From NCBI GenBank assembly GCA_963780895.1, contig CAWAEG010000009.1, forward strand, positions 88,025-152,024: a DNA stretch of 64,000 nt. Direction: 5' to 3'. The notes under the pieces are model-generated. The model saw only the letters and a program-made list of their open reading frames with translations. It was not told where the DNA came from and searched no databases. Each line of letters opens with the position of its first letter. Positions within the stretch are counted from its first letter, which is position 1. Positions 2,852 to 55,226 of this stretch are shown here, in pieces. This DNA comes from an uncultured Acidobacteriota bacterium. GTDB taxonomy: Bacteria; Acidobacteriota; Vicinamibacteria; Vicinamibacterales; SCN-69-37. The position numbers were made by a program, and so were the translations under genes.

Positions 2852-5582
2852 TCAGGAATTCTGATCCGAAGACAGCCGCGTGACAAGGCCCTGCCGCCGG
2901 CGTTTCAGGAACAGGCCCTTGCGGGAGATGCCGAGCAGCTGCGCCGCATCGGCGACGCGGCCGCCGGACGATTCCATCGCGTGCTCGATGAACTTCTTCT
3001 CGAGCTCGGCCAGCGCCTGCACCAGCGGTTGATCGATGCGGACGGTGACGGCCGGGACGGTGACCGACGCGTGCGACGTCGGCCGTGAGTTCCAGGCCTC
3101 GGCGATTTCCGGCGCGAGATCTCCGGCGCCCAGCGTCTGTCCATCCGCGGCCAGCGCGACGACGCGCCTGATCTCGTTGGCGAGCTGCCGGATGTTGCCG
3201 GGCCAGTCGAAGAGCAAGAGCGCGGCGATGAAGTCGTCGCCGGGCCGCAGGCCGGTCCGCTGGCATTCGCGGCTGAATCGATCGAGAAACAGCGCGGCGA
3301 GCGCGGGAATTTCGTCTTTCCGTTCGCGAAGCGGCGGCAGGTTCAGGCGTGCGACCCCGACGCGATAGAAGAGGTCGCGCCGGAAGCGGCCCTGATCGAC
3401 GAGATCATCCAGGTCCGCGTTCGTCGCCGCGACGACGCGCACCGAGACGCGCTGGGGACGGACGTCGCCGACCGGGTGCACCTCACCGCTTTCGAGGAAG
3501 CGCAGGAGTTTGGGCTGGGTGGCCAGGTCGAGGTCGGCCAGCTCATCGAGAAAGACGGTGCCGCGCTCGGCCGCGCGGAGCACTCCGGGAAACGAGTCCA
3601 TCGCGCCGGTGAACGCGCCGCGGCGATGGCCGAACAGCTGGCTCTCCACGAGATCGCGTGGCATGGCGGAGCAGTTGAACGGCACGAAGGGCCCGCGCTT
3701 GACCTGGCTGTATTGATGGATCAGTCGCGCAATGATTTCCTTGCCCGTGCCGGTCTCGCCGGTGATGAGGACCGGCAGGTTCGTCGAGGCGAGCCGCACC
3801 GCGATGCGCAGGAGCTCGACCATCCGCGGCGATCGAAAGACGGTGTCGTCGCCGTCCTGCACGAGCGTCCGCGGCCACAGATTCTGCTCGTCGTCTTCGG
3901 ATTCCGTGTCCGCGGTCCGGTTGACGGCCGCCTGCGTCAGATCGGCGAGGCCCTTCAGCAGGGTGATTTCCTCGATCGTGTGCGCATCGCGGACATGGAT
4001 CGACACGCGCCGGTCGGATCCGTGAAGCCGGATCCGAAACACGCCGTTGGGATCGATGTCGGAGACGCTGGACGGCTCGGGCTGATATTCGCGCCCGGAC
4101 TCGCTCTGGATCTCGACCCGCGCGTTGAGCGACGTGCTCTGGAGGATCGCGGCGATCCGATGCGCCATGAGATCGATGGAGTGTCCGGCGCCGAGAATCG
4201 TCGCGACGTCGTTCAGCAGCAGTGCGGTGTCGGTCAGGTCGCGGCTCGGGCGCTCGACGGCGACGGTCGATTTCAGCGTACGGCTGATGTCGCGCCGATC
4301 GCGCTCGATCCAGGACTCGTGATAGCGGTGGCCGATGGCGCGGCACGCGGCGAGCGCGCGGTCGTAATGCACCTCGCCTTTGGCCGCGTCGCCGCGCAGG
4401 CTGAAGCAGAGCGCCTTGGATGCTTCGAGGACGATCAGCGGATCGACGGCGCCGCGCGGGCAGGAGCGGACGGCGGTCGCGAGAGCGGCATCCGCGCCGC
4501 CGTGTTTGCCCAGTCGTGCGAGCGCCCGCGCCTTCGCACAGAGCAACGAGGTGCGCACGGCTTTGAACTGCCGGCGTGCCAGCTCGGGGTCGGCCGCGTC
4601 GGCGACGGCCACCACCTCGGTCGAGTCTCCGATGGCTTCGAAGTAGGAGCACCGGGTGACGTCGATTGGCGAGGTCGTTCCAAGATCGAGCAGGCACCTT
4701 GTCGGCTGAAGCGGTGGACTGGCATTGCGCCAGCAGAGCGCGGCATTCTGCGGTGCGTCCCTGACAAAGTTCGACCAGCGCGAGGTTGTCGAGCGCGGCA
4801 AGCTTGACGTAAGTGGCTTGACCAGCGGATTTGAGAACAAAGTCGAGGTAATCGCGCGCCTTGGCGAAATCTCCGGAATGCGCCGCATTGAGCGCTAAGT
4901 TGGTTGCGGAACCCAGCTTGTAGGTCGAGAATCCCGCAGAATCGGCTCGCTCGAAACATCGCTCACCCATTTGCCTTGAGTGAACAAGGTTTCCCGTTAC
5001 CGAAGCCAGCGAGGCCTCGACCAGATCAACCGAACAAACCAATGCAGGATCTTGGACGTGACCGGAAAGCTGACGGGCAATTCCAAGGTGTCTGTGCGCA
5101 TCCGAGCACCGCCCTCGGCACCCCTCAAGACGCGCCACGGCCAAGTGAAGGCCGGCAAGTGAGCGCGCGTCCCCACTTAGGCATGCCAATTGACGCAGCC
5201 GAGTCAGCGCCGGAACCACTTCCTCCGGAGCCTGGAAATCCGTCTCTCTTACGAACAGGTTGAACGCGACGTTGAACTGAACGGCTGCGGCGCTGCGTCG
5301 GGACCCTTCAACCGCAAGCTTCAGTGTAGCGATTGAATCCACGGCGTTCCCCGAGTCAAACAACGCTTTTGCCCGAAGTACGAGCAACCGAACGGTTGAT
5401 TCGGCGTCGAGGTTCCAGCTGTCTGCTGATTCGCAATACTCAAGAGCGCTTTGTACTTGCCCCGCGCGATAAAGAGCTTCCGCACGTGACACATGCTCGT
5501 CGGGCGAACCAATGCTTTCGTGGTTCGGGAGGTGCAAATGGCGGGTGGTTCTCCGTCCCGCTCCGTCAGCTTTGTCAGCCAT
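2852..5582 (-). pseudogene. Sigma-54-dependent transcriptional activator (TPR-like N-terminus, central sensory region, AAA+ domain, Fis-type HTH). Frame break near 4690-4720.
   Basis: ORF 2852..4888 carries [22 protein letters not shown] and the C-terminal HTH AAQLLGISRKGL, but its first ~60 aa are Ser/Pro/Arg junk. The protein-like N-terminus (ATG 5582, ~290 aa of helical repeats) is in the frame of ORF 3543..5582. The codon phases of the two halves differ by one extra base. Confidence 0.8.
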
Positions 5583-5686
5583 CGTGTCCGGTCCCAGAAC
5601 GTCCGATTGGGATCCGGGACGATATCAAACCTTGACGTGCGCCGACAGCAAATGTCTGGGCAGGTCCAAAATGCGGCGGAAATCGT

Positions 5687-7622
5687 TCAGTGAATGCGGG
5701 ATCCAGGCCTCTCCGTTGGCCGGCTATCTTGGCGAGGTTCTTTTTGTCCTGAAGGACTTACAGCCGCGGCAAAGAGGGTCGCAGCACTCTCCAGCATTCG
5801 CTTGTGATCGTTATTGAAAGGGTCACTGCCGTAAGCGGTGATGACGCCAATCGGCGTCAACACAGGACCATTCAGAATCGGAACTGCCAGGGCGTACCGC
5901 AGAGGTACCGAGAAAGTTCGCGCGACTGGTCCCAATTCGAGTGCCGCGTTCGAATTCAACACGGCGTGTTTGTGAGCGTGTGCCCAGCCAGAAATCCGAT
6001 CGCCGATGGCGATCGTAAGCCCTTCGATGGTTGAGGTGCCGACGCCTGAACAGGCGATTACAGCGAGTTCATTCTTGTCATTCGGAACGAATAGGGTCAG
6101 AGTAGCAGCCGGGATAACTCTTCGAAGGTGTCTAAACAAAACGTCGGCCGCGTCCGTGACGGACGCCGTTAACGGCAGATCTCGACGAAGTTCGTTAAAC
6201 TCCCGTTCTTCAGCAGTAGTCGCAGCGATCACGTCGAGCTGAGACGGAGACAGAACCGGCGCTTCGGCGCCCGGAGTCACCAAGCTCTCCTCGGCGTCCA
6301 TCCGCTCAAGACGGTCAAGGATCCGTAGGAACTCATCCACGACCCACGGATCGTACCAAGTTCCCCGTCTCTCGCGCAGCACTTGTTCGGCATGCTGGCG
6401 AGTGTACCTTGGCCGGTATGGCCGGTCGGATGTGAGCGCATCATAACAATCGACTACGGAAAGAATTCGGGCACCGAGCGGGATGTCATGAGCCCGAAGT
6501 CCTTCAGGATATCCCGAGCCATTCCAGTTCTCATGATGATGCCGAACGATGGGTTCGACTGGATAAGGAAAATTGATTGACTTGAGAATGTCCGCGCCGA
6601 CTGCTGCATGCACCTTCATCCGCTCAAACTCGGCCGGAGTCAGCGGTCCTGGTTTATTTAGGATGTACCTCTGGGACCGCGAGCTTGCCCGTGTCATGTA
6701 GCAGTGCCGCCGCTCTCAGAGCGTCTAGCTGTTTTGGATCCTTAATCCCCAGGGCCTCCGCAAGCGTCATCGTGTAACGCTGTACGCGTCGAATGTGACC
6801 ATGAGTCACCTGGTCCTTGGCGTCGATGGCAAGCGCCAGAGCTTCGATAGTTGACAGGAACACTCTGTTCAGTTCGGCAACCTTCTGGCGTTCCGACTCG
6901 ACCCTTTTGTTTGACCATTGGTACGCCAAGAAAAGAAGAATCAATAAAGGAATGATCGCGGCAACGAAAATTGGGTCGACGGTCCGCGTGTTATATACGA
7001 GCAGAGCACCGATAGAACCGCCGGCGCCATAGTTCACAAGCAGGTCGCGGCAGTACTTCGTCCAGAGCTCATACGGACGCATCTGCCGCTGAAGAGCGAT
7101 CGCAATTGTCAAAAGCCAGCTAATCAGGAAGAAGTAGACGGTTGTGAAGATCGCGAGCTTGGCAACAAACCAGAAGTCCAGCTTCGTAACCGCTGGGTCG
7201 GTCTCAAACAGCGGCGTGATGCCTGCAATTTGGGCGGCGAGCCAGACAGCGACAGGACCAGCGGAGGCGTTAAAAATAATTTGTTTCCATTGAATGCGCC
7301 GCGAAAAACGGAGCCGCAGCGACATGAACAGCGCGTCAATCAGGATAAGGACCGTTCCACCGGCCGCACCGAAGAGAAGCGTGCCCGCAATGACGAACGT
7401 CTCGGAAATCGAAATGCTGATACTGACGTTGGGCAGCGTAACCGGGATCAGGCCACTGACAACCGTGAGCGCGACTAGCGAGAACCACTGAACGCGAAAG
7501 TCCGGGCCTTGATTGACGAGCTCAAACGTACTGAGAGAAACCACCACCGCGCCGACAGCGGCGACGACGGCCACATATGTGGAGAGAGTGCCTGAAGGAG
7601 GCGATCCTGGGGAATCCGACAT
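5687..7622 (-). pseudogene. 7TM-receptor / HD-GYP phosphodiesterase / GAF protein. Frame broken by one extra base at 6668.
   Basis: ORF 6654..7622 has about 7 hydrophobic helices followed by LLHDTGKLAVPE. ORF 5687..6697 continues in another frame with YILNKPGPLTPAEFERMKVH...HHHENWNGSGYPEGL (HD-GYP) and a C-terminal GAF-like region. Confidence 0.8.
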
Positions 7623-7667
7623 GCTGGCGGTTAAGTTCCAAGCGGCTGCCGGATTGGGACGTCAGCT

Positions 7668-7683
7668 TGGCAACCAGCTAGCT
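7668..7683 (+). promoter_or_regulatory. Sigma-54-like -24/-12 motif (TGGCAaccagcTaGCT). No obvious downstream gene on this strand.
   Basis: GG and GC are at the canonical 10-nt offset of TGGCACG-N4-TTGCW. The motif lies in the AT-rich spacer between two minus-strand genes. Confidence 0.25.
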
Positions 7684-7760
7684 CCAGACAATTATTCGGC
7701 TCTTCATTTCACACCCACTAGTCCGATTCGAGGGCTGGGGAGCGATCGAGGCAGGTCTAA

Positions 7761-7776
7761 CCCAAAAGGCGTGCCG
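7761..7776 (-). promoter_or_regulatory. Sigma-54-like -24/-12 motif (minus strand cGGCACGccttTTGg), ~140 nt upstream of the HD-GYP gene.
   Basis: GGCACG and TTG match the consensus, but the conserved -12 C is replaced by G. A sigma-54 activator gene lies adjacent. Confidence 0.3.
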
Positions 7777-7928
7777 ATGTAATTACAGAAAGGTAGGCGG
7801 TGCTAACTTGTTGGATCTGAGTGATTAAGCGCCAAGATGACCCGAAGGCTTGATTACTTAGCTCCAGATAACGATCTCTTTTGTCACCATACTCGCCTCG
7901 GCCTTACAAAACTGCTCATGGTTCGAAT

Positions 7929-9662
7929 TTAGTACCAAGGGTCGTCTTCGCGAACCGCACCGCCCCAAATCATTCCGCCACCCCAAATCATTCCCCCGCC
8001 CCAAATCATCCCCTCGCCCGAAATCGACTTGCCGCCCCAAATCATGCCGTCGCCTGAGATGGCTTCGCCGCCCCAAATCATTCCGCCGCCCCAGATCATT
8101 CCGCCACCCCAGATCATCCCGCCGCCCCAGATCATCCCGCCGCCCCAGATCATTCCGCCACCCCAGATCATTCCGCCACCCCAGATCATTCCGTTGCTCC
8201 AGACTGATCCGTCGACGAAATACAATTGACCGGCGTGGACTTCTTCTCCTCCAATGACGTTCCACGGCTGGAGTTGGGTGCCCTTAGCCTGGACAAGTGC
8301 GGCAGCCAGCGCGACGTTCACACTGCCTGCGCCTTGTTCGGCCAGACCGTAACCAGGGACAAACTGGGCGGAGATCTGCAAGGCGAACTTGGCCTCGCGC
8401 GGAGTCAGCTTCGGTTGGGCTTGGAGGATCTGCGCCACTGCGCCAGAAACTACGGCCGCTGCCATGCTAGTTCCCGACAACTTGAGGTAGGTCCCACCGG
8501 CCGACCCGTACATCCGTCTCTGTGGGTGGTCCCGCCACAACGAACTGCTCTCTGAGATAGCGGCCACGATGGCGTTTCCAGGCGCTACAACGTCTGGCTT
8601 CATCTGCCATGATTCGGGCGAATCCGGCGATCCCACCGGCCCGCGCGAGCTGAACGTCGCCAGAATGTCATCCGATCGCTCGACCGTGCCGCGCGTATTC
8701 AGTGCGCCAACCGTGAGCGCTCCGGGCGTGTAACCTGGCGAAATAATCGCCCCCACGATCGGCGTGCCATCCTCGAGCTTGCCCAGATTGCCCGCCGACG
8801 CGACGACGACGAGCCCGGCGTCCACCGCCTGCTCGACGGCCTTCGCCATCGGGTCATCCATCGGTGACCCGGACGCGGGATGGCCGAGCGACAGGTTGAT
8901 GACGCGAATCTTGAATTTGTCCCTGTTGGCGATCGTCCACTCGATCGCCTCGAGCACGTCCGAGACGTACCCCGATCCGTCTTCGCCCAGGACCTTCAGG
9001 CTGATCAGGTGCGCGCCCGGCGCCATGCCGACGTACTCGCTGCCTTCGGCCGTCCGGCTGCCGGCGCCGCTGCCCGCGATGATGCTCGCGACGTGTGTGC
9101 CGTGCCCGTACGCGTCGGCTGCGTCAACTTGCTCGGCGTTGAGCTCGCCACGGAAATCGAGCGACAGCGCCAGCCGATTCGCCAGATCCGCGTGCCGTGC
9201 GATGCCCGAATCAATGACCGCGACGCCGATGCCCTTGCCCGTGATTCCGCTGAAGTTCCCCGACTTGCCGGCCGCCTTCCAGAGCTGGCTGGCGCCCGTC
9301 GACTGCGCCGTCACCCCGCTCATCCCGACGACGCGGTCGTCCTGCGAAAGCGCCGCGACCTTGGCGTCGAGCGCGAGCAAACGGATTTGATCCGCCGACC
9401 CGCTCAGGACGGCTCCCGACCCGAGACGCTTCTCGACCCGCACCCGGTACGTCGCGGCCAGACGGTTCACCTCCGCCTGGGGCCCTTCGTACACGACATC
9501 CAGCCGGGCGGCGCCCGCCGCAAGCTGGTGCTCGAGCCCTCGTGAGAGCTTCGCCCGATGCTGTGCCGTGGCCGGTAGCGGTGCCGCAAGGATTCCCGCC
9601 ACCAGGCCGATAAACGTAATCAGCCGGGCGCGGTCGACCGTGGGGAACGGTAGGCGACTCAT
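7929..9662 (-). CDS. Secreted subtilisin-family (S8) serine protease with an I9-like propeptide and a C-terminal MIWGGG hexapeptide-repeat domain.
   Basis: Catalytic contexts VAVIDSGI (Asp), HGTHVASIIAG (His), VINLSLG (Asn) and SGTSMAAAVVSG (Ser). The signal-like start MSRLPFPTVDRARLITFIGLVAGILAAPLPATA begins at ATG 9662; the ORF track extends to 9713. Confidence 0.85.
   Translation of the reverse strand: MSRLPFPTVDRARLITFIGLVAGILAAPLPATAQHRAKLSRGLEHQLAAGAARLDVVYEGPQAEVNRLAATYRVRVEKRLGSGAVLSGSADQIRLLALDAKVAALSQDDRVVGMSGVTAQSTGASQLWKAAGKSGNFSGITGKGIGVAVIDSGIARHADLANRLALSLDFRGELNAEQVDAADAYGHGTHVASIIAGSGAGSRTAEGSEYVGMAPGAHLISLKVLGEDGSGYVSDVLEAIEWTIANRDKFKIRVINLSLGHPASGSPMDDPMAKAVEQAVDAGLVVVASAGNLGKLEDGTPIVGAIISPGYTPGALTVGALNTRGTVERSDDILATFSSRGPVGSPDSPESWQMKPDVVAPGNAIVAAISESSSLWRDHPQRRMYGSAGGTYLKLSGTSMAAAVVSGAVAQILQAQPKLTPREAKFALQISAQFVPGYGLAEQGAGSVNVALAAALVQAKGTQLQPWNVIGGEEVHAGQLYFVDGSVWSNGMIWGGGMIWGGGMIWGGGMIWGGGMIWGGGMIWGGGMIWGGEAISGDGMIWGGKSISGEGMIWGGGMIWGGGMIWGGAVREDDPWY
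7959..8199 (-). repeat. Tandem 18-bp coding repeat (about 13-14 units) encoding (G)MIWGG(G).
   Basis: Plus-strand units ccgccNccccaRatcatN recur head to tail. The translation has 12 MIWGG(G) units plus two variants (EAISGD, KSISGE), all in frame within the protease. Confidence 0.9.
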
Positions 9663-9864
9663 TTTATGCGTCCTGAACGCTAAAGACACCGAAGTGGGAG
9701 AACCGCGCGCCACTTACGAGCATGTACTGTACCAACGAATCTGTATTACAAAGCTTGGATTTCCGCTTAGTTCTTGAGCAGAAACCACTTGGAGCCTGCC
9801 TGATCACCGACAAATCCGGAAGTTTGATCACAAAACCGAAAGCCGAATCACGGACTTGGAATTC

Positions 9865-9892
9865 CCGGGAAACGCGCCAGCCCCGGTTTTTT
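9865..9892 (+). terminator. Weak terminator-like hairpin plus T6 with no upstream plus-strand gene.
   Basis: ccggg-N12-cccgg is followed by tttttt (9887-9892), in the spacer between the protease start and the ABC substrate-binding gene. Confidence 0.25.
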
Positions 9893-9942
9893 GAGGCAAG
9901 AGCCGCAGAGTCTAGTCGAAACCCACGCTTTTTGAAAGCGGA

Positions 9943-11709
9943 TTGCAGAACCGTCGGAAACGAGGTCCAGTTTTGAAATCCAGCCGTCTGCTGGCGCTTG
10001 CGCTCGTGGTCGTCGCGATCAGCGCGGGCCTCTACTGGGCCCGCACTGGCCGATCCACCGACAGATCCGTCAGCCGCGGACCCGAGGTCGGCGGACGGCT
10101 CCTCGCGTCGTACAGCTCCGAGCCCAAGAGCTTCAACCGCCTCGTCTCGACGCTCGGCGCCGACGAGCTGATCTCCCGGCTCACGCAGACGACGCTCGTG
10201 CGTGTGAACCGTGCGTCGGGGGAGGTCGAGCCGCGGCTCGCACGCGAATGGTCGTCGTCGGCCGACGGCCTGACCTGGACCTTCAAGCTTCAGGAAGGCA
10301 TCACCTTTTCAGACGGCACCGCGTTCACCTCGTCGGACGTGCTCTTCACGTTCGCGGCGCTGTACGACCCGCGGGTGAAGAGCGGGATGGCGACGACCCT
10401 CTCCGTCAATGGCCGGCCGCTCGAGGTGAAAGCGCTCGACGCGCACACCGTCACGATCAAGTTCCCGTCGGTGTTCGGGCCAGGGATCACGTTGTTCGAT
10501 ACGCTGCCGATCCTGCCGAAACACAAGCTGCAGGCCGCGCTCGACGCCGGCACGTTCCGCGACGCCTGGAGCGCGACCACGGCGCCGTCGAGCATCACCG
10601 GGCTCGGCCCGTTCGTCCTGAAGTCGTATTCGCCCGGGCAGAGTCTGCTCTTCGAGCGCAATCGCCGTTTCTGGAGACGCGACGACCAAGGCCGGACGCT
10701 GCCGTATCTCGACGAAATCCAGATCGACATCATTCCGGACATGAGCGCGCAGGTCCTGCGACTCGAGTCCGGTACGGCCGATCTCATCAGCGATTCCATC
10801 CGGCCCGAAGATCTCGCCGCGTTCCGGAAACAGGAAGCGAACGGCGTCGTGAAACTGGCCGAAGCGGGCATCAGCATCGACCCCAACGTGCTCTGGTTCA
10901 ATCTGAGGCCCGGCACACCGGCCGCGAACGGTCGGCCCTGGCTTCAGGACGAAGCGCTGCGGCACGCGATTTCGTACGCGGTCAACCGGCAGACGATTGT
11001 CGACACGGTCTACCTGGGCGCCGCCGTGCCGATTTTCGGTCCCGTGACACCTGGCTACGGGGACTGGTACCTGCCTGACTTACCGCAGACCAAACACGAT
11101 CCAGCGAGAGCCCGGACGCTGCTCCGGTCGATCGGCATTGCCGACCGGAACGGCGACGAACTGTCCGAGGACGCGGCCGGCAAACCCGCGCGGTTTTCGA
11201 TATTGACCCAGAAAGGCAGCACACAACGCGAACGGATCGCCGCGATCGTGAAAGAACAGCTCCGAATCGTCGGACTCACCGCCGACGTCGTAGCCGCCGA
11301 CCCAGGCTCGCTGTTCGCGCGCTTCCAGAAGGGCGACTACGATTCGATCCTGTTCTACGCGCCCGTCGATTCGGTCGATCCGGCGCGGACGCCCGAGTTC
11401 TGGATGAGCGCGGGCCCGTTCCACTTCTGGAATCCGAATCAGCCCCGGCCCGCGACCGACTGGGAAGCGACGATCGACGACCTGATGCGGCAACTGACCA
11501 CGACGCTCGATGGCGCCAAGCGGCGGCAGCTCTTCGAGCAGGTGCAGCGGCTGGTGTCGGCGCATCTTCCGGTGCTGCACTTCGCCGCGCCGAAAGTCAC
11601 GATTGCGATGAGCGCGCGGCTGCACGGCGCGATGCCGTCGGTCTTCGACCCGCCCGTCTTGTGGAACGCCGAGGTGCTGTCCCTTTCAGGTCCGCCCGGC
11701 GGGAAGTAG
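9943..11709 (+). CDS. ABC transporter substrate-binding protein, peptide/nickel (family 5, DppA/OppA-like).
   Basis: 588-aa ORF with an N-terminal anchor (LLALALVVVAISAGLYWA). Length and sequence character are typical of SBP family 5. It is followed by two DppBC-type permeases. The start is uncertain (TTG 9943 or TTG 9973). Confidence 0.75.
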   Translation: MQNRRKRGPVLKSSRLLALALVVVAISAGLYWARTGRSTDRSVSRGPEVGGRLLASYSSEPKSFNRLVSTLGADELISRLTQTTLVRVNRASGEVEPRLAREWSSSADGLTWTFKLQEGITFSDGTAFTSSDVLFTFAALYDPRVKSGMATTLSVNGRPLEVKALDAHTVTIKFPSVFGPGITLFDTLPILPKHKLQAALDAGTFRDAWSATTAPSSITGLGPFVLKSYSPGQSLLFERNRRFWRRDDQGRTLPYLDEIQIDIIPDMSAQVLRLESGTADLISDSIRPEDLAAFRKQEANGVVKLAEAGISIDPNVLWFNLRPGTPAANGRPWLQDEALRHAISYAVNRQTIVDTVYLGAAVPIFGPVTPGYGDWYLPDLPQTKHDPARARTLLRSIGIADRNGDELSEDAAGKPARFSILTQKGSTQRERIAAIVKEQLRIVGLTADVVAADPGSLFARFQKGDYDSILFYAPVDSVDPARTPEFWMSAGPFHFWNPNQPRPATDWEATIDDLMRQLTTTLDGAKRRQLFEQVQRLVSAHLPVLHFAAPKVTIAMSARLHGAMPSVFDPPVLWNAEVLSLSGPPGGK

Positions 11710-12629
11710 TGAGCCGCACGGTCTGGACGTTCCTGATCCGAAGGATTTTCGGCGCCGTCGTGTTCGTGGCCGTCGTCTCGACGAGTGCGCTCGTCCTCGT
11801 CCGCCTCGCGCCGGGCGATGCCGCAACGGTGCTCGCGCTCAAAGGCACCGACGCGGCGACGCTCGAGGACATCCGGCAGCGCTACAAGATTGGCCTCCCG
11901 GTGCTGGACCAGCTTGGCGACTGGGTGAGCGGCGTCGCGCGCCTGGATCTCGGCCAGTCCTATCTCTACGGCCGGCCGGTGGCGGGGCTCGTGATCGAGC
12001 GGGCCCAGCGAACGGCGCTCCTCGCCGCGATCGTGCTCGTGGTGGCGACCCTCATCGGCCTGCCGCTCGGCGTGCTCACCGGCGCTCGTCCGCGAGGTCT
12101 TCTGGCTGCGCTCGTCTCGCCGCTTTCGATCGCGCTCGTCGCCTGTCCGCCGATCGTTGGCGCCCTCGCCCTACTCCTGCTCGCGGCGACCACCGGATGG
12201 CTGCCCACGTCGCCGGGAAGTCTTGCGGTGCCGACGCTCGCCCTCGCGCTGCCGCTGGCCGCTTCACTCGAGCGGCTCCAGTCGCAGGCCACGGCCGAGT
12301 CGCTCGCGGCTCCGGACATCACGGCGACCGCGGCGCGCGGCGTCCCGCGCGCGCGGCTGATCTGGATTCACGCGGCCCGCCAGTCGCTGCGGCCGGTTCT
12401 GGGCGTCTACGGCATCGTGATCGGCACGCTCTTCAGCGGATCGCTCGCGGTCGAGGTGATCACCGGCTGGCCCGGCCTCGGGCGCCTCATGTCGGACGCG
12501 CTCGTCGGCCGCGATCTGTATCTTGCGACCGGGTGCGCGCTCGCGGGCGCGGTCCTGATCGCGTTGGGCAACACGATCGCGGACCTCACGCGGGCGATCG
12601 TCGATCCGAGGATCGAGAGCGGACCATGA
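11709..12629 (+). CDS. ABC transporter permease (DppB/OppB-like).
   Basis: GTG 11709 overlaps the upstream TAG by 1 nt. The N-terminus VSRTVWTFLIRRIFGAVVFVAVV is typical for this family, and the protein is multi-pass hydrophobic. Confidence 0.75.
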   Translation: MSRTVWTFLIRRIFGAVVFVAVVSTSALVLVRLAPGDAATVLALKGTDAATLEDIRQRYKIGLPVLDQLGDWVSGVARLDLGQSYLYGRPVAGLVIERAQRTALLAAIVLVVATLIGLPLGVLTGARPRGLLAALVSPLSIALVACPPIVGALALLLLAATTGWLPTSPGSLAVPTLALALPLAASLERLQSQATAESLAAPDITATAARGVPRARLIWIHAARQSLRPVLGVYGIVIGTLFSGSLAVEVITGWPGLGRLMSDALVGRDLYLATGCALAGAVLIALGNTIADLTRAIVDPRIESGP

Positions 12630-31470: not shown

Positions 31471-31543
31471 CCTGGGCCTTCCAGCCTTGGGCGTTGTGCC
31501 TTGTGCCTTGGGCCTTCGGCCCTCGGCCTATGGCCTTCGGCCT
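31471..31543. repeat. Heptamer tandem tract (gtgcctt / gggcctt / cggccct / tggcctt).
   Basis: Ten or so consecutive degenerate 7-nt units read by eye, between the rsfS stop and the comF start. Confidence 0.7.
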
Positions 31544-41062: not shown

Positions 41063-42085
41063 ATGTCAGCGCGAGACGCCGTTCAGGATCAGACGAGAAA
41101 CTTCCTGTCGTTTCTCCGCTTCAACCGGAACGTGTCTCCTCATACGCTGCGGGCCTACGAGACCGACCTCGCCCAGCTCGTCGATCACCTGGCCGGTCGC
41201 GACGGGTGCCCGCCGAGCGCGGTGACGCTCGCGCGGTTCGACGTGGACGGCGTGCGGGGGTTTCTCGAAGAGCTGCACGACCGCGGCAACAGCCGATCGT
41301 CGTCGGCGCGCCGGCTGGCGGCGTGCCGCACCTTTGCCCGGTACCTCATTCGCGAAGAGCTGATCGAGGACGACCCGACTGCGCTCGTCGGCGCGCCGCG
41401 AAAAGATCAGACGCTGCCTTCGCATCTGCCTGCCGACGACATGGAGCGGCTGCTGGCGGAGCCCGACACGGACACCGTCGGCGGCCGCCGCGATCGCGCG
41501 ATTCTGGAGCTGTTTTACGCCTCCGGTCTGCGTCTCAGCGAGCTGGTCGGGCTCGACCTCGAAGACACCAATCTTTCGAGCCGCGTCGTTCGCGTGCGCG
41601 GGAAGGGCGGCAAGGAGCGGCTGGTGCCCTTCAACAGGTCCGCCACCGACGCCATCCGCTCGATGCTGGCGGATGGGAAGGGCAAAGGGCAAAGGGCAGA
41701 GGGCAGAGGAGAGGGGAAAGGGACGAGGGAAAAGGGGAGGTTCGGACCGGGCGCGAGATTCAGCCGGCACGACCCGCGGCGCCAGCCGCTGTTCCTCAAT
41801 CTGCGCGGGCAGCGGTTGACGACCCGAAGCGTCGATCGCATCGTGCGGCGGTATGTGAAGCAGGCTGCGCTCACCGGCGCGATCAGCCCCCATGCACTGC
41901 GCCACACGTTCGCGACACATCTGCTGCAGGCCGGCGCCGATCTGCGTGCGATTCAGGAGCTGCTCGGCCATGCGCGGCTCAGCACCACGCAGCGCTACAC
42001 CCACCTCGACGTCGGACGACTGATGGAGGTCTACAAGAACGCGCACCCGCGGGCCCGGCGTTCATCGCGGCCAAGACCTGATTGA
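41063..42085 (+). CDS. xerC: Tyrosine recombinase XerC/XerD family.
   Basis: LSPHTLRAYETDL, LRLSELVGL, VRGKGGKERLVP, HALRHTFATHLL, LGHARLSTTQRYTHL. Confidence 0.9.
   Translation: MSARDAVQDQTRNFLSFLRFNRNVSPHTLRAYETDLAQLVDHLAGRDGCPPSAVTLARFDVDGVRGFLEELHDRGNSRSSSARRLAACRTFARYLIREELIEDDPTALVGAPRKDQTLPSHLPADDMERLLAEPDTDTVGGRRDRAILELFYASGLRLSELVGLDLEDTNLSSRVVRVRGKGGKERLVPFNRSATDAIRSMLADGKGKGQRAEGRGEGKGTREKGRFGPGARFSRHDPRRQPLFLNLRGQRLTTRSVDRIVRRYVKQAALTGAISPHALRHTFATHLLQAGADLRAIQELLGHARLSTTQRYTHLDVGRLMEVYKNAHPRARRSSRPRPD
41675..41740. repeat. Purine-rich heptamer tract (aagggca x3, gagggca, degenerating) in frame inside xerC.
   Basis: gggaagggcaaagggcaaagggcagagggcagaggagaggggaaaggg... encodes GKGKGQRAEGRGEGKGTREKG, in a loop that is variable in the family. 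Confidence 0.75.
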
Positions 42086-49614: not shown

Positions 49615-50223
49615 ATGACCCCGACGGATGAGGAACTCGTTGCCCGCGCCTCCGCGGGCGACCTGGAAAGCTTCAACCAGCTCGTTACACGCTGGGAGAG
49701 GCCGATCTATGCTCTGGCGTACCGGACGCTGGGTCGTGAAGAAGACGCTCGCGATGTCGTGCAGGAAGCCTTCCTCCGGGCCTACCGCGGCCTTCGCGGG
49801 TTCAAGGGACAGGCGAAGTTCTCGTCATGGCTGTATCGGATCACGCTGAACCTCTGCCGCGACTGGATCCGGCGCGAGCGGCGTGCGCCGCTCGTTCAGG
49901 TGCCGGAAGGCACCGATCCGGTGGAACTGGCCGATGAGCGGGTCGCGCCGACTGAATCGGTCGAGGAGCTCGTCGCACGACGCGAGCTGTCAGAGGCGGT
50001 CGCGCTGGCGATGGCCGAGCTGCCGGAGGAACAGCGCACGGCGATCATGTTGAAGGAGTACCACGGCCTGACGTTTCAGGAGATTGCGGACATGCTCGAC
50101 TGTCCGCTCAGCACCGTGAAGACGCGTCTCTATCAGGGGCTCTCTGTTCTGCGTCGCCGACTGGAGCGGAGGCAGGCGGAGGCGGCGAGCCTGAGACGCG
50201 CGACGTGGGAAAGCAGTACATGA
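49615..50223 (+). CDS. ECF-type sigma-70 family factor.
   Basis: Region 2 is DVVQEAFLRAYRGLRGFKGQAKFSSWLYRITLNLCRDW and region 4 is TFQEIADMLDCPLSTVKTRLYQG. Confidence 0.85.
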   Translation: MTPTDEELVARASAGDLESFNQLVTRWERPIYALAYRTLGREEDARDVVQEAFLRAYRGLRGFKGQAKFSSWLYRITLNLCRDWIRRERRAPLVQVPEGTDPVELADERVAPTESVEELVARRELSEAVALAMAELPEEQRTAIMLKEYHGLTFQEIADMLDCPLSTVKTRLYQGLSVLRRRLERRQAEAASLRRATWESST

Positions 50224-50342
50224 AACTTAGAACTTCAAACTTCAAACTTCGAACTTCGAACGACAGACCCGGGACGTCGAAATCGGCGTTCATGTGACCG
50301 GGTTCGAAAGTTCGAAGTTTGACGTTCGGAGTTCGAAGTTTC
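50222..50342. repeat. ~120-nt heptamer-word hairpin (gaacttc / gaagttc arms) between the sigma and anti-sigma genes.
   Basis: Left arm gaaacttagaacttcaaacttcaaacttcgaacttcgaac pairs with right arm gttcgaaagttcgaagtttgacgttcggagttcgaagtttc. The inner stem continues (acccgg/ccgggt). Confidence 0.8.
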
Positions 50343-54254: not shown

Positions 54255-55226
54255 TTACTTGTTCAGCTTCTTCAGCGACACTCGCTCCGTCAACGTCTTG
54301 CCGACTTTGACGTCGATCTCGCCGCGGTAGGTCTGATAGCCTTCCGCGCGGAGCTCGATCGTGTGTTTCCCGCCGTCGAGCTCGAGGTGGTCGGAGAAAC
54401 CATCGAAGTCGTCAGCGGTCCCGACGAGCGCGCCGTCCACGTAGACCTGCGCCGAGCTCGGACTGACCTTGAGCCGGATGGAGCCCACCATACTCTTCGG
54501 CTCGTCGTAGTCCCGGCCACCCCCGCCCGAGCTGTAGCCGCCGCCTCCATAGCCGTAGTAGTACGGGTCGTACATAAATGGATCGTAGATGAACGGGTCG
54601 TACCAGAGGCCGTAGCGTCCCCAGTACCAACGCGCCGCGCCGTAATGCCACGGGTTGTACGTGACGAACCCGAGGTTCCAGCCGAAACCGCTGCCGTACC
54701 AGGGATACCAGCGGCCCCATGGACCGTAGAGCGGGAACGAAACCAGGGTCGTGTCCGGCGCGCGCCGCGGCACGGCGATGCCGCTCAAGGAACGGCCGTC
54801 ACGATCGCGGCTGACGGCCACCACGCCGTTCGGCAGCGAGCTGGACCGTGTCGAGTTCGACTCGGTGCTTGCGGTCAGCATCGGACGGCCGGGGCCGGTC
54901 ACGACGCCGCCCGGCTGGGGCGCGGGTGCCGATCGCGATCCGCTGCTCACGCGCGACGAGCTCGGAATGCGGCTCGGGGAGCGGGAGACACTGGACCTGG
55001 AGCTGCCAGAACTGGATGACTCTCCAGCACTCGATCCGGAACTGCTCGAGCCGGAGCTGCCGCTCGAACTCGATCCGGACGACCCGGAGGAGCCGGACGA
55101 ACCCGAAGAACCGGACGACCCGGAGGAACCGCTGCCTCGAGGCACCGCCTGAGCGCCCGCGACGGTTGGAGCAGTGAGGGCGATCGAAACGACGAGACTG
55201 AGTGCGAGACGTGTCGACCTGGCCAT
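54255..55226 (-). CDS. Secreted PEGA-domain protein with a (GSS)n tract and an aromatic/Gly-rich region.
   Basis: Signal peptide LALSLVVSIALTAPTVAGA, then GSGSSGSSGSSGSSGSSGSSGSSSS..., then YGPWGRWYPWYGSGFGWNLGFVTYNPWHY...YYYGYGGGGY. The C-terminal PEGA-like segment is GSIRLKVSPSSAQVYVDGALVG...IELRAEGYQTY. Confidence 0.7.
   Translation of the reverse strand: MARSTRLALSLVVSIALTAPTVAGAQAVPRGSGSSGSSGSSGSSGSSGSSGSSSSGSSGSSSSGSSAGESSSSGSSRSSVSRSPSRIPSSSRVSSGSRSAPAPQPGGVVTGPGRPMLTASTESNSTRSSSLPNGVVAVSRDRDGRSLSGIAVPRRAPDTTLVSFPLYGPWGRWYPWYGSGFGWNLGFVTYNPWHYGAARWYWGRYGLWYDPFIYDPFMYDPYYYGYGGGGYSSGGGGRDYDEPKSMVGSIRLKVSPSSAQVYVDGALVGTADDFDGFSDHLELDGGKHTIELRAEGYQTYRGEIDVKVGKTLTERVSLKKLNK

Follow-up and report, generated by a model that had tools for sequence, protein, structure and literature searches.

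The DNA analysed here, termed the window in the following, is a stretch of 64,000 nucleotides from an uncultured Acidobacteriota bacterium of the Vicinamibacterales (GenBank assembly GCA_963780895.1, contig CAWAEG010000009.1, positions 88,025 to 152,024 of the forward strand). On its minus strand lies a gene for a protease of the S8 (subtilisin) family whose C-terminal tail consists largely of an array of GMIWGG hexapeptides. An initial annotation, made from the letters of the DNA and without database searches, had drawn attention to this array. Here, the array was read codon by codon, compared with the tails of homologous proteases, modelled with AlphaFold2 and set against known repeat families, folds and anchoring systems. 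By these sequence comparisons the tail was shown to be a local version of an undescribed, family-wide repeat. The positions of the features discussed are compiled in Table 1.

The hexapeptide array and its host protease

An 18-bp tandem repeat of 13.0 copies was detected at 7960-8193 by Tandem Repeats Finder (TRF; score 263), and codon-by-codon reading of the minus strand divides it into 13 in-frame hexads in the order of seven GMIWGG, EAISGD, GMIWGG, KSISGE and three further GMIWGG. With 11 of the 13 hexads being exact GMIWGG, the array is real, as eleven identical hexapeptides are beyond chance. The initial annotation had described 14 units, 12 of them near-identical, at the C-terminus of the protein. 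The repeat as such, and its position in frame, stood up to re-reading; the number of 14 is reached only if the degenerate lead unit GSVWSN is counted, and the 12 near-identical units turned out to be 11 identical ones. The array end formerly placed at 8199 falls inside this lead unit, and the very C-terminus is formed not by the array but by nine non-repeat residues (AVREDDPWY). Glycine makes up 45% of the array, and the tail holds 12 Trp motifs, all downstream of a conserved hairpin, NVIGGEEV...LYF. No second such array was found in any frame of the 64-kb window. Two further open reading frames (ORFs), a plus-strand 'PPQII' ORF (8029-8229) and an out-of-frame minus-strand ORF across the array (7858-8265), were rejected as by-products of the repeat.

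Among the 11 GMIWGG units, the DNA differs in 0-4 of 18 bases. Only four sites vary among them, each of which is a synonymous third position, and 13 other sites are invariant; if the variable sites were random, the chance of such an all-synonymous pattern would be 5/3060 = 0.0016. Because every DNA difference between the units is synonymous, these data demonstrate purifying selection on the peptide of the array. Units 1 and 2 have the same DNA. The Ile codon is ATC in the first six GMIWGG units and ATT in the last five, a split which suggests at least two local rounds of amplification. The near-identity of the units had earlier been taken as a sign of recent expansion; turnover is supported by the comparison with relatives given below, but the selection on the peptide has to be taken into account as well.

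The longest ORF at the locus comprises 594 codons (7929-9713). Its GTG start at 9713 was rejected in favour of the ATG at 9662, as a candidate promoter overlaps the longer frame and the orthologues from L001 (a Vicinamibacterales metagenome-assembled genome, 78% identity, the closest genome relative) and L005 (a metagenome contig, 97% identity) begin at the equivalent Met. The assignment of the host protein to the S8 proteases, already made in the initial annotation, was confirmed by a match to Pfam PF00082 over amino acids (aa) 159-449 (E 3.5e-51; 174.7 bits at a cut-off of 21.8); NCBIfam returned only sub-threshold S8-type models. D168, H204, N309 and S416 (ORF numbering) are located in DSG, HGTH, AGN and GTSM motifs in the order known from subtilisin, and the catalytic triad and the oxyanion Asn are invariant columns in an alignment of 65 sequences (A1). 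From its signal-peptide-like N-terminus, a segment that is also conserved in L001, the protein is predicted to be secreted. In the full-length AlphaFold2 model, the propeptide-like and catalytic domains have predicted local distance difference test (pLDDT) scores above 90. The hairpin, with the family consensus I-[AG]-G-E-x-V-x-x-G-x-x-A-F, precedes the repeats in all members of the family.

Table 1. Features of the S8 protease gene and of its conserved surroundings, in positions of the window.
Feature	Position	Strand	Basis
S8 (subtilisin-family) protease gene, 577 aa from ATG 9662	7929..9662	minus	ORF list, Pfam Peptidase_S8
Predicted Sec signal peptide MSRLPF...LAAPLPATA	9564..9662	minus	read from sequence: hydrophobic core followed by A-T-A
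N-terminal propeptide-like domain	9324..9554	minus	AlphaFold2 strands and helices, model residues 37-113, pLDDT >90; Foldseek against 3afg
Catalytic S8 domain	8367..9239	minus	Pfam, aa 159-449
Catalytic Asp	9210..9212	minus	
Catalytic His	9102..9104	minus	
Oxyanion Asn	8787..8789	minus	
Catalytic Ser	8466..8468	minus	
Conserved pre-repeat hairpin LQPWNVIGGEEVHAGQLYFVD	8211..8273	minus	I7 and E10 nearly invariant (alignment A3); AlphaFold2 strands at tail-model residues 4-7, 10-13 and 17-20
Degenerate lead unit GSVWSN	8193..8210	minus	codon reading; kept in 97%-identical relative L005
Array of 13 hexads	7959..8192	minus	TRF period 18 and unit table
Variant unit EAISGD	8049..8066	minus	same register as RGVSGD in P0008 and its relatives
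Variant unit KSISGE	8013..8030	minus	in register with family 12-mer
Non-repeat C-terminus AVREDDPWY and stop codon	7929..7958	minus	translation; pLDDT <50 in both models
Candidate sigma-54 (-24/-12) promoter TGGTACAGTACATGC	9720..9734	minus	GG-N10-GC, 72 bp upstream of ATG
HD-GYP/GAF membrane protein gene, downstream conserved neighbour	5687..7622	minus	Pfam HD profile split over two ORFs
Sigma-54 enhancer-binding protein gene, conserved neighbour	2852..4888	minus	Pfam Sigma54_activat, E 7.4e-61
Divergent peptide-type ATP-binding cassette (ABC) importer: SBP_bac_5 binding protein and first permease	9943..12629	plus	Pfam

A repeat family of S8 protease tails and its turnover

A search with the full-length protein yielded 4200 S8 relatives, the best-named of which come from Vicinamibacterales and other Acidobacteriota metagenome-assembled genomes. 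Proteins were assigned to the repeat family if at least three motifs of the type hydrophobic-hydrophobic-Trp-Gly were present after the catalytic domain and the hairpin, a pattern which the tail encoded in the window displays. At least three such motifs follow the catalytic domain in 76 of the 120 best homologues, and most of the others end before that point; practically every homologue that is not cut short is thus among the 76. The distance between consecutive motifs is most commonly 12, 6 or 14 residues, followed by 13, 8, 11, 15, 10 and 16, and the usual unit of the family has 12-14 residues. The positional consensus is [DN]-[TNS]-[IL]-[VI]-W-G-[NSD], to which x-x-[VL]-x-[GA]-[DN] is added in the 12-mers; in about 1% of the family units the second position is Met, as it is in the array of the window. 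The hexapeptide first regarded as a one-off is instead a derived form, rich in Gly and Met, of a widespread repeat that most orthologues carry. Two consecutive hexads of the window, GMIWGG-KSISGE, align without gaps with TIVWGG-RGVSGD of P0008 and with sixteen other 12-mer arrays. EAISGD and KSISGE, initially listed as mere variants of the unit, are by this in-register alignment remnants of the second half of an ancestral 12-mer, the Trp-bearing half of which was amplified alone in the lineage of the window.

In order to define the extent of the family, a repeat profile (A2; 48 columns covering four in-register 12-mers) was searched against 1.84 billion cluster representatives at 50% identity. 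It matched 545 representatives at E<=1e-3, of which 82 reached E<=1e-10. The 147 newly listed matches consist of 73 proteins with the repeat and evidence for an S8 domain, 41 with the repeat and without S8 evidence, and 33 without Trp. The 41 are mostly short fragments, and 24 of the 27 scanned carriers without S8 evidence have no Pfam domain. Two complete carriers that are not S8 proteases are P0150, which has a signal-like N-terminus, repeats and a sub-threshold TPR match (22 bits at a cut-off of 27), and P0184, a protein of 154 aa with a signal peptide, whose gene has a LigD-like gene on one side and GNAT and QueA genes on the other. The module is overwhelmingly, not exclusively, an appendage of S8 proteases. 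The Trp-less matches among ten that were scanned have YdcK repeats, bactofilin or trimeric-autotransporter domains, ice-binding rolls, or no domain; for these beta-solenoid proteins the match reflects a likeness of the periodic pattern and not homology.

Two groups among the profile matches were observed besides. The first, from another lineage, comprises small stand-alone secreted proteins made only of DDNIVWGT-type repeats (P0184, at 848-1312 of L006; also P0226, P0135 and P0225). After the P0184 gene in L006 comes the GNAT acetyltransferase gene, and P0226 has a GNAT domain after its own repeats; P0135 and P0225 share a similar MEKM... segment in that place. The second group (P0123, P0128, P0140, P0145, P0146 and similar proteins) comprises proteins of about 150-250 aa that start with MKKYELT...GDLGGYIE..NLS and continue with G[ND]AxV[YWS] hexads (Pfam YdcK repeat, bactofilin-like). 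Its scores against the Trp-Gly profile reach E 1e-23 purely via the shared periodicity, which calls for caution in searches with repeat profiles.

The tail had been said to resemble no known sorting signal, cell-wall-binding repeat or beta-helix family, and this was borne out by searches of Pfam, NCBIfam, PDB sequences and PDB folds. The window tail has no Pfam match at E<=10, the repeat profile found no match among PDB sequences at E<=10, and with the whole protein only S8-type models of Pfam and NCBIfam were obtained at E<=1. None of the described anchors to the envelope or signals for sorting (choline-binding/CW_binding, GW, SLH, LysM, LPXTG, PEP-CTERM, the type IX secretion C-terminal domain and the autotransporter barrel) was matched at E<=1 in Pfam or NCBIfam; the end of the protein, AVREDDPWY, has neither a hydrophobic helix nor a basic tail. 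A phmmer-type search of a set of 5.8 billion proteins with the tail alone gave 951 word-sharing candidates, none of them at E<=1e-3, probably owing to the correction for composition bias. An exact copy of the window protein is absent from the contig index. A full-text literature search for IVWG-, IIWG- and VWGD-type motifs and for subtilases combined with beta-solenoids returned nothing relevant.

The comparison with close relatives gave information about the turnover of the units. In L001, the same hairpin is followed by GVVWGG units in identical 18-bp copies, and in L005 the beginning of the array, GSVWSN-GMIWGG-G, is the same as in the window. Both contigs end inside the array (L001 at 7480-7568, L005 at 4470-4491), and a comparison of copy numbers with these two relatives could therefore not be obtained. 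The arrays of other orthologues are likewise nearly uniform in their DNA, with 36-bp units (9.8 copies, 93% matches) or 42-bp units (10.7 copies, 97%). Homogenised inside each genome but different from one genome to the next, the units demonstrate concerted evolution, and the recent turnover proposed in the initial annotation is supported by this homogenisation in the relatives. The gene is thus a systematic break point of short-read metagenome assembly, and many records of a 'partial S8 peptidase' have probably been cut in this way.

Copy numbers were compared among complete proteins that share both termini, in clusters of at least 90% identity. In the cluster of P0008, proteins with 2, 3, 4, 6, 7, 8, 9, 10, 14 or 15 motifs were found, differing in exact steps of 12 aa. 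The numbers were 2, 4, 7 or 11 in the cluster of P0012, 2, 4, 5 or 11 in that of P0036, and 16, 17 or 18 in that of P0013. Clusters with diverged units have a constant array length. The length variation that had been expected is thus supported, and the comparison demonstrates that the copy number is unstable in assemblies. This pattern is what slippage or unequal exchange predicts, and a collapse of short-read assemblies would produce the same one.

Conserved gene neighbourhood

Downstream of the protease gene, the HD-GYP/GAF and sigma-54 activator genes are found in the window as well as in L002, L003 and L004. Upstream, the divergent SBP_bac_5 importer is present in the window, L004 and L008, and L001 has an ORF of similar size at that position. 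Beyond the importer, genes for an M48 peptidase and an aminotransferase belong to the conserved neighbourhood (window 2852-12629; L002, L003, L004 and L008), which is kept down to a protein identity of 41%. These neighbours hint at a regulated unit of proteolysis, peptide uptake and cyclic-di-GMP signalling, and the context fits a nutritional role of the protease.

The HD-GYP/GAF gene of the window is split by a +1 frameshift, an extra G at 6668/6669, into two ORFs (6654-7622 and 5687-6697) that overlap at 6654-6697. At this site the window reads GAG-G-TAC, where the intact orthologue of 641 aa in L002 reads GAG-TAC (..LAVPEYILNKPG..); the frameshift reflects either a real pseudogene or a sequencing error of one base. 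In the region of the sigma-54 activator gene, two minus-strand ORFs of about 680 aa each (2852-4888 and 3543-5582) overlap in different frames. The first has the sigma-54 activator match, and the second may be a shadow ORF of the high-GC sequence.

A candidate sigma-54 promoter of the form TGGTAC-N5-ATGC was observed 72-94 bp before the start codon of the protease gene in four of five orthologous loci (window, L001, L002 and L004; not in L003). It remains only a lead, because the number of sigma-54 patterns over the whole window equals the chance expectation.

Elsewhere in the window, a second low-complexity secreted protein is encoded at 54255-55226 (minus strand). Its signal peptide is followed by a (GSS)n run with a 9-bp repeat (tandem repeat at 55047-55132), a segment rich in Trp, Tyr and Gly (WYPWYGSGFGWNLGF...YYYGYGGGGY) and a C-terminal beta-rich domain. 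Tandem repeats of 7 bp were also noted (GCCTTGG x 8.6, AAGGGCA x 4.6 and AAACTTC / GTTCGAA x 5-6, at 31484-31543, 41678-41740 and 50223-50340).

Predicted fold, function and relation to known systems

For the prediction of its fold, the tail was modelled separately with AlphaFold2, using an alignment of 20 homologous tails. The best model has a mean pLDDT of 76, with 84-88 over the repeats, and contains one short strand per hexad, alternately 3 and 4 residues long, in a rhythm of 12 residues. The solenoid-like fold that had been considered in the initial annotation is suggested by this model, from which we infer a narrow beta-solenoid in which each turn takes up about 12 residues, roughly two hexads or a single long unit. 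In this arrangement, Ile or Val at position 3 and Val at position 9 would point inwards and Trp would form an external ladder.

The explanation favoured here, to which a probability of about 0.5 is assigned as a whole, is that the tail is a C-terminal domain of a secreted subtilase, formed by a local variant of the family repeat, folded as a beta-solenoid and acting as an avidity module. Each hexad would contribute one short beta-strand, and the strands would stack into the solenoid with the central Ile inside and ladders of Trp and Met outside. Slippage or unequal recombination would alter the DNA, homogenising the units and rapidly changing their number, with selection holding the peptide constant. 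As a multivalent module, the tail might hold the enzyme on a polymeric surface, such as the cell envelope, the matrix or an insoluble substrate, or allow the enzyme to associate with itself. Peptides freed by the protease would then stay near the cell and could be taken up by the adjacent peptide ABC importer. The function is probably the attachment or self-association of a nutritional exoprotease. This role is favoured because of the variable copy number, the conserved aromatic residue, the stand-alone secreted versions of the repeat, the adjacent peptide importer and the precedent of the Bacillus protease Vpr.

Several points weigh against this explanation. In the full-length model the pLDDT of the tail is only 50-63, and among the five tail-only models, whose mean pLDDT declines from 76 to 54, two are poor (62.8 and 54.3). 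When the tail model was compared with the PDB by Foldseek, no solved fold matched (best E 1.1, template modelling (TM) score 0.25), though the weak matches, among them LpxD, PglD and gamma-carbonic anhydrase with TM scores of 0.15-0.21, are all beta-helices and in this respect favour a solenoid. No single coil geometry accommodates the spacings of 8, 10, 13 and 15 residues seen in relatives, and loops must therefore vary. Handedness, coil size and the inward or outward direction of residues are inferred. With Trp and Met pointing to the outside on both of its faces, such a solenoid would be very hydrophobic and might not occur as a soluble monomer. The differences in copy number among assemblies are possibly artefacts of collapse.

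The first alternative, possible if unlikely, is that the tail is a disordered low-complexity region in which Ile-Trp 'stickers' are separated by glycine 'spacers', and which serves as a flexible tether or is a sticky, aggregation-prone segment. The high glycine content of the array, the low pLDDT in the full-length model, the free variation in length and composition of the spacers across the family and the lack of a fold match would all be explained in this way. Disorder does not account well for an invariant Trp and for beta-branched Ile/Val at fixed positions in both half-units, nor for the regular strands and high pLDDT of the repeats in the tail-only model, and the repeat profile cross-matches proven beta-solenoid families.

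An unlikely reading is that of a C-terminal pro-region, which would aid secretion or folding, or serve as a plug or a built-in competing substrate, before being cleaved off by the protease itself following export. Many subtilases have C-terminal extensions that undergo processing. Cleavage by subtilisins takes place behind large hydrophobic residues, and each unit offers one Trp-Gly or Met-Ile site. A hinge with a pLDDT of about 35 lies between hairpin and array in the full-length model, the copy number is seemingly free to vary, and homologous tails with units of 13 residues have sub-threshold matches to the tandem-repeat pro-region of lysostaphin, although these are probably an effect of periodicity. 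The strict purifying selection, the deep conservation of the motif and the existence of stand-alone secreted repeat proteins argue instead for a function of the repeat itself. Removal of the tail as a pro-region is compatible with the favoured solenoid and its role as an avidity module.

It is quite improbable that an assembly artefact lies behind the array or, at the least, behind its copy number. In favour of this reading, the assemblies of two close relatives, made independently, break off within the array, near-identical members of clusters differ widely in copy number, and the first two units of the window have identical DNA. Against this, the start of the array recurs in an independent metagenome, hundreds of homologues have arrays, and the array of the window is flanked left and right by unique sequence, with the two variant units and the synonymous differences serving as landmarks inside it. 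That the array exists is thus secure; of the artefact concern raised in the initial annotation, only the doubt about the number of 13 copies is left.

It is very improbable that the tail is a peptide cassette, which the protease, expected to cleave behind Trp or Met, would cut after export into GGGMIW-like peptides for uptake by the importer and signalling through the HD-GYP and sigma-54 proteins; protease and pheromone would then form a signalling unit complete in itself. Such a peptide would be species-specific (GVVW for the relative at 78% identity, cores of the IVW type elsewhere), and an analogy is given by the Phr peptides of Bacillus, which are excised by subtilisin-family proteases and imported by Opp. 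The synteny of the three components and the homogenisation within species with divergence between them are compatible with this idea. A structural repeat agrees better with the predicted beta-solenoid and with a core that is conserved while its spacers vary. With regard to a multi-core ribosomal peptide (RiPP) or pheromone precursor, Pfam scans of the syntenic loci revealed no modifying enzymes among the conserved neighbours.

Membership of the tail in a known fold family is extremely improbable: the six-residue period with an aliphatic residue, the weak Foldseek matches and the sub-threshold NCBIfam matches of P0028 to BimA and YadA models (29 bits at a cut-off of 800 and 16 at 750) are outweighed by the missing Pfam match, the TM scores of 0.25 or less and a spacing not fixed at 6, 9 or 14 residues. 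Of the individual candidates, the left-handed beta-helix hexapeptide family was rejected for the Trp next to the aliphatic residue and the lack of a Pfam match. The RTX beta-roll was rejected for the 6-residue unit, the absence of a Pfam match, the absence of Asp in 11 of the 13 units, which leaves no RTX-type calcium sites, and the signal-peptide-like N-terminus, which is unlike that of type I substrates. The YadA-head beta-roll was rejected as neither the window tail nor five homologues have a profile match.

Acidobacteria, abundant in soil and difficult to cultivate, take part in the turnover of nitrogen through the proteases they secrete. In these bacteria, an orthologous group of S8 proteases ends in a module that is described by no domain database or solved structure and that is present in at least 545 cluster representatives. 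A definition of the module would improve annotation and account for the breaks that assemblies show at this gene. Should the predicted narrow solenoid and its outward-facing Trp ladder prove correct, it would be a new short-repeat beta-solenoid and possibly a new means by which diderm bacteria retain an exoenzyme at a surface. The linkage with the sigma-54 activator, the HD-GYP protein and the peptide importer provides a regulatory context that can be tested.

The closest known structure is that of Tk-SP from Thermococcus kodakarensis (PDB 3afg), which is both the best PDB sequence match (E 1.4e-45) and, as ProN-Tk-SP, the best fold match (E 1.9e-29; 439-456 aligned columns including its propeptide, 31-32% identity). 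A propeptide and an S8 catalytic domain are common to the two proteins, as is an additional beta domain at the C-terminus. The match, however, extends only as far as query residue 454, where the catalytic domain ends, and the C-terminal domain of Tk-SP is a globular beta-jelly-roll rather than a tandem repeat, which has a stabilising role. Vpr of Bacillus (PDB 8jmw) is likewise an extracellular S8 peptidase with a homologous catalytic domain. Its C-terminal assembly domains mediate self-association into active extracellular fibrils, which were proposed to enrich protease activity around the cell (PMC10657474). In contrast to the tail described here, these assembly domains are globular and lack short tandem repeats, and for the protein of the window, known from its sequence, polymerisation is only proposed.

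With the narrow beta-solenoids and rolls (YdcK repeat, bactofilin, YadA-head and antifreeze rolls), the tail shares profile cross-matches and, by prediction, one short strand per half-unit and a period of about 12 residues. The YadA-head roll has 14 residues, and the antifreeze rolls of insects and grasses have 12-15. There is no homology to these families by Pfam or TM score, and they have neither the invariant Trp-Gly core nor the position at the end of an S8 protease. The Pfam Hexapep repeat ([LIV]-[GAED]-X2-[STAV]-X), whose members dominate the weak Foldseek list, resembles the array in its six-residue period and regular aliphatic residue, and differs in that the spacings of the relatives are 8-16 residues and the predicted rhythm is 12, not 18 residues. 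RTX proteases of the serralysin type also are secreted with a glycine-rich C-terminal tandem repeat, and the Gly-Asp/Asn turns recur in the consensus of the window family; the unit here has 6 or 12 instead of 9 residues, no HemolysinCabind match was obtained, and an N-terminal signal peptide is predicted. Lysostaphin, too, is a secreted hydrolase with short tandem repeats in its pro-region. The matches of Lysostaphin_N (PF25533) to two homologues with 13-residue units (56.5 and 41.2 bits) were rejected as an effect of periodicity, as they lie below the cut-off of 60 bits and the window tail has none; moreover, lysostaphin bears its repeats at the other end of the protein, and the period is all that the sequences have in common. 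Taken together, no new principle is indicated: with its short, beta-solenoid-like repeats that extend a secreted enzyme at the C-terminus, the tail falls into a known class, and its repeat family merits a name and a structure.

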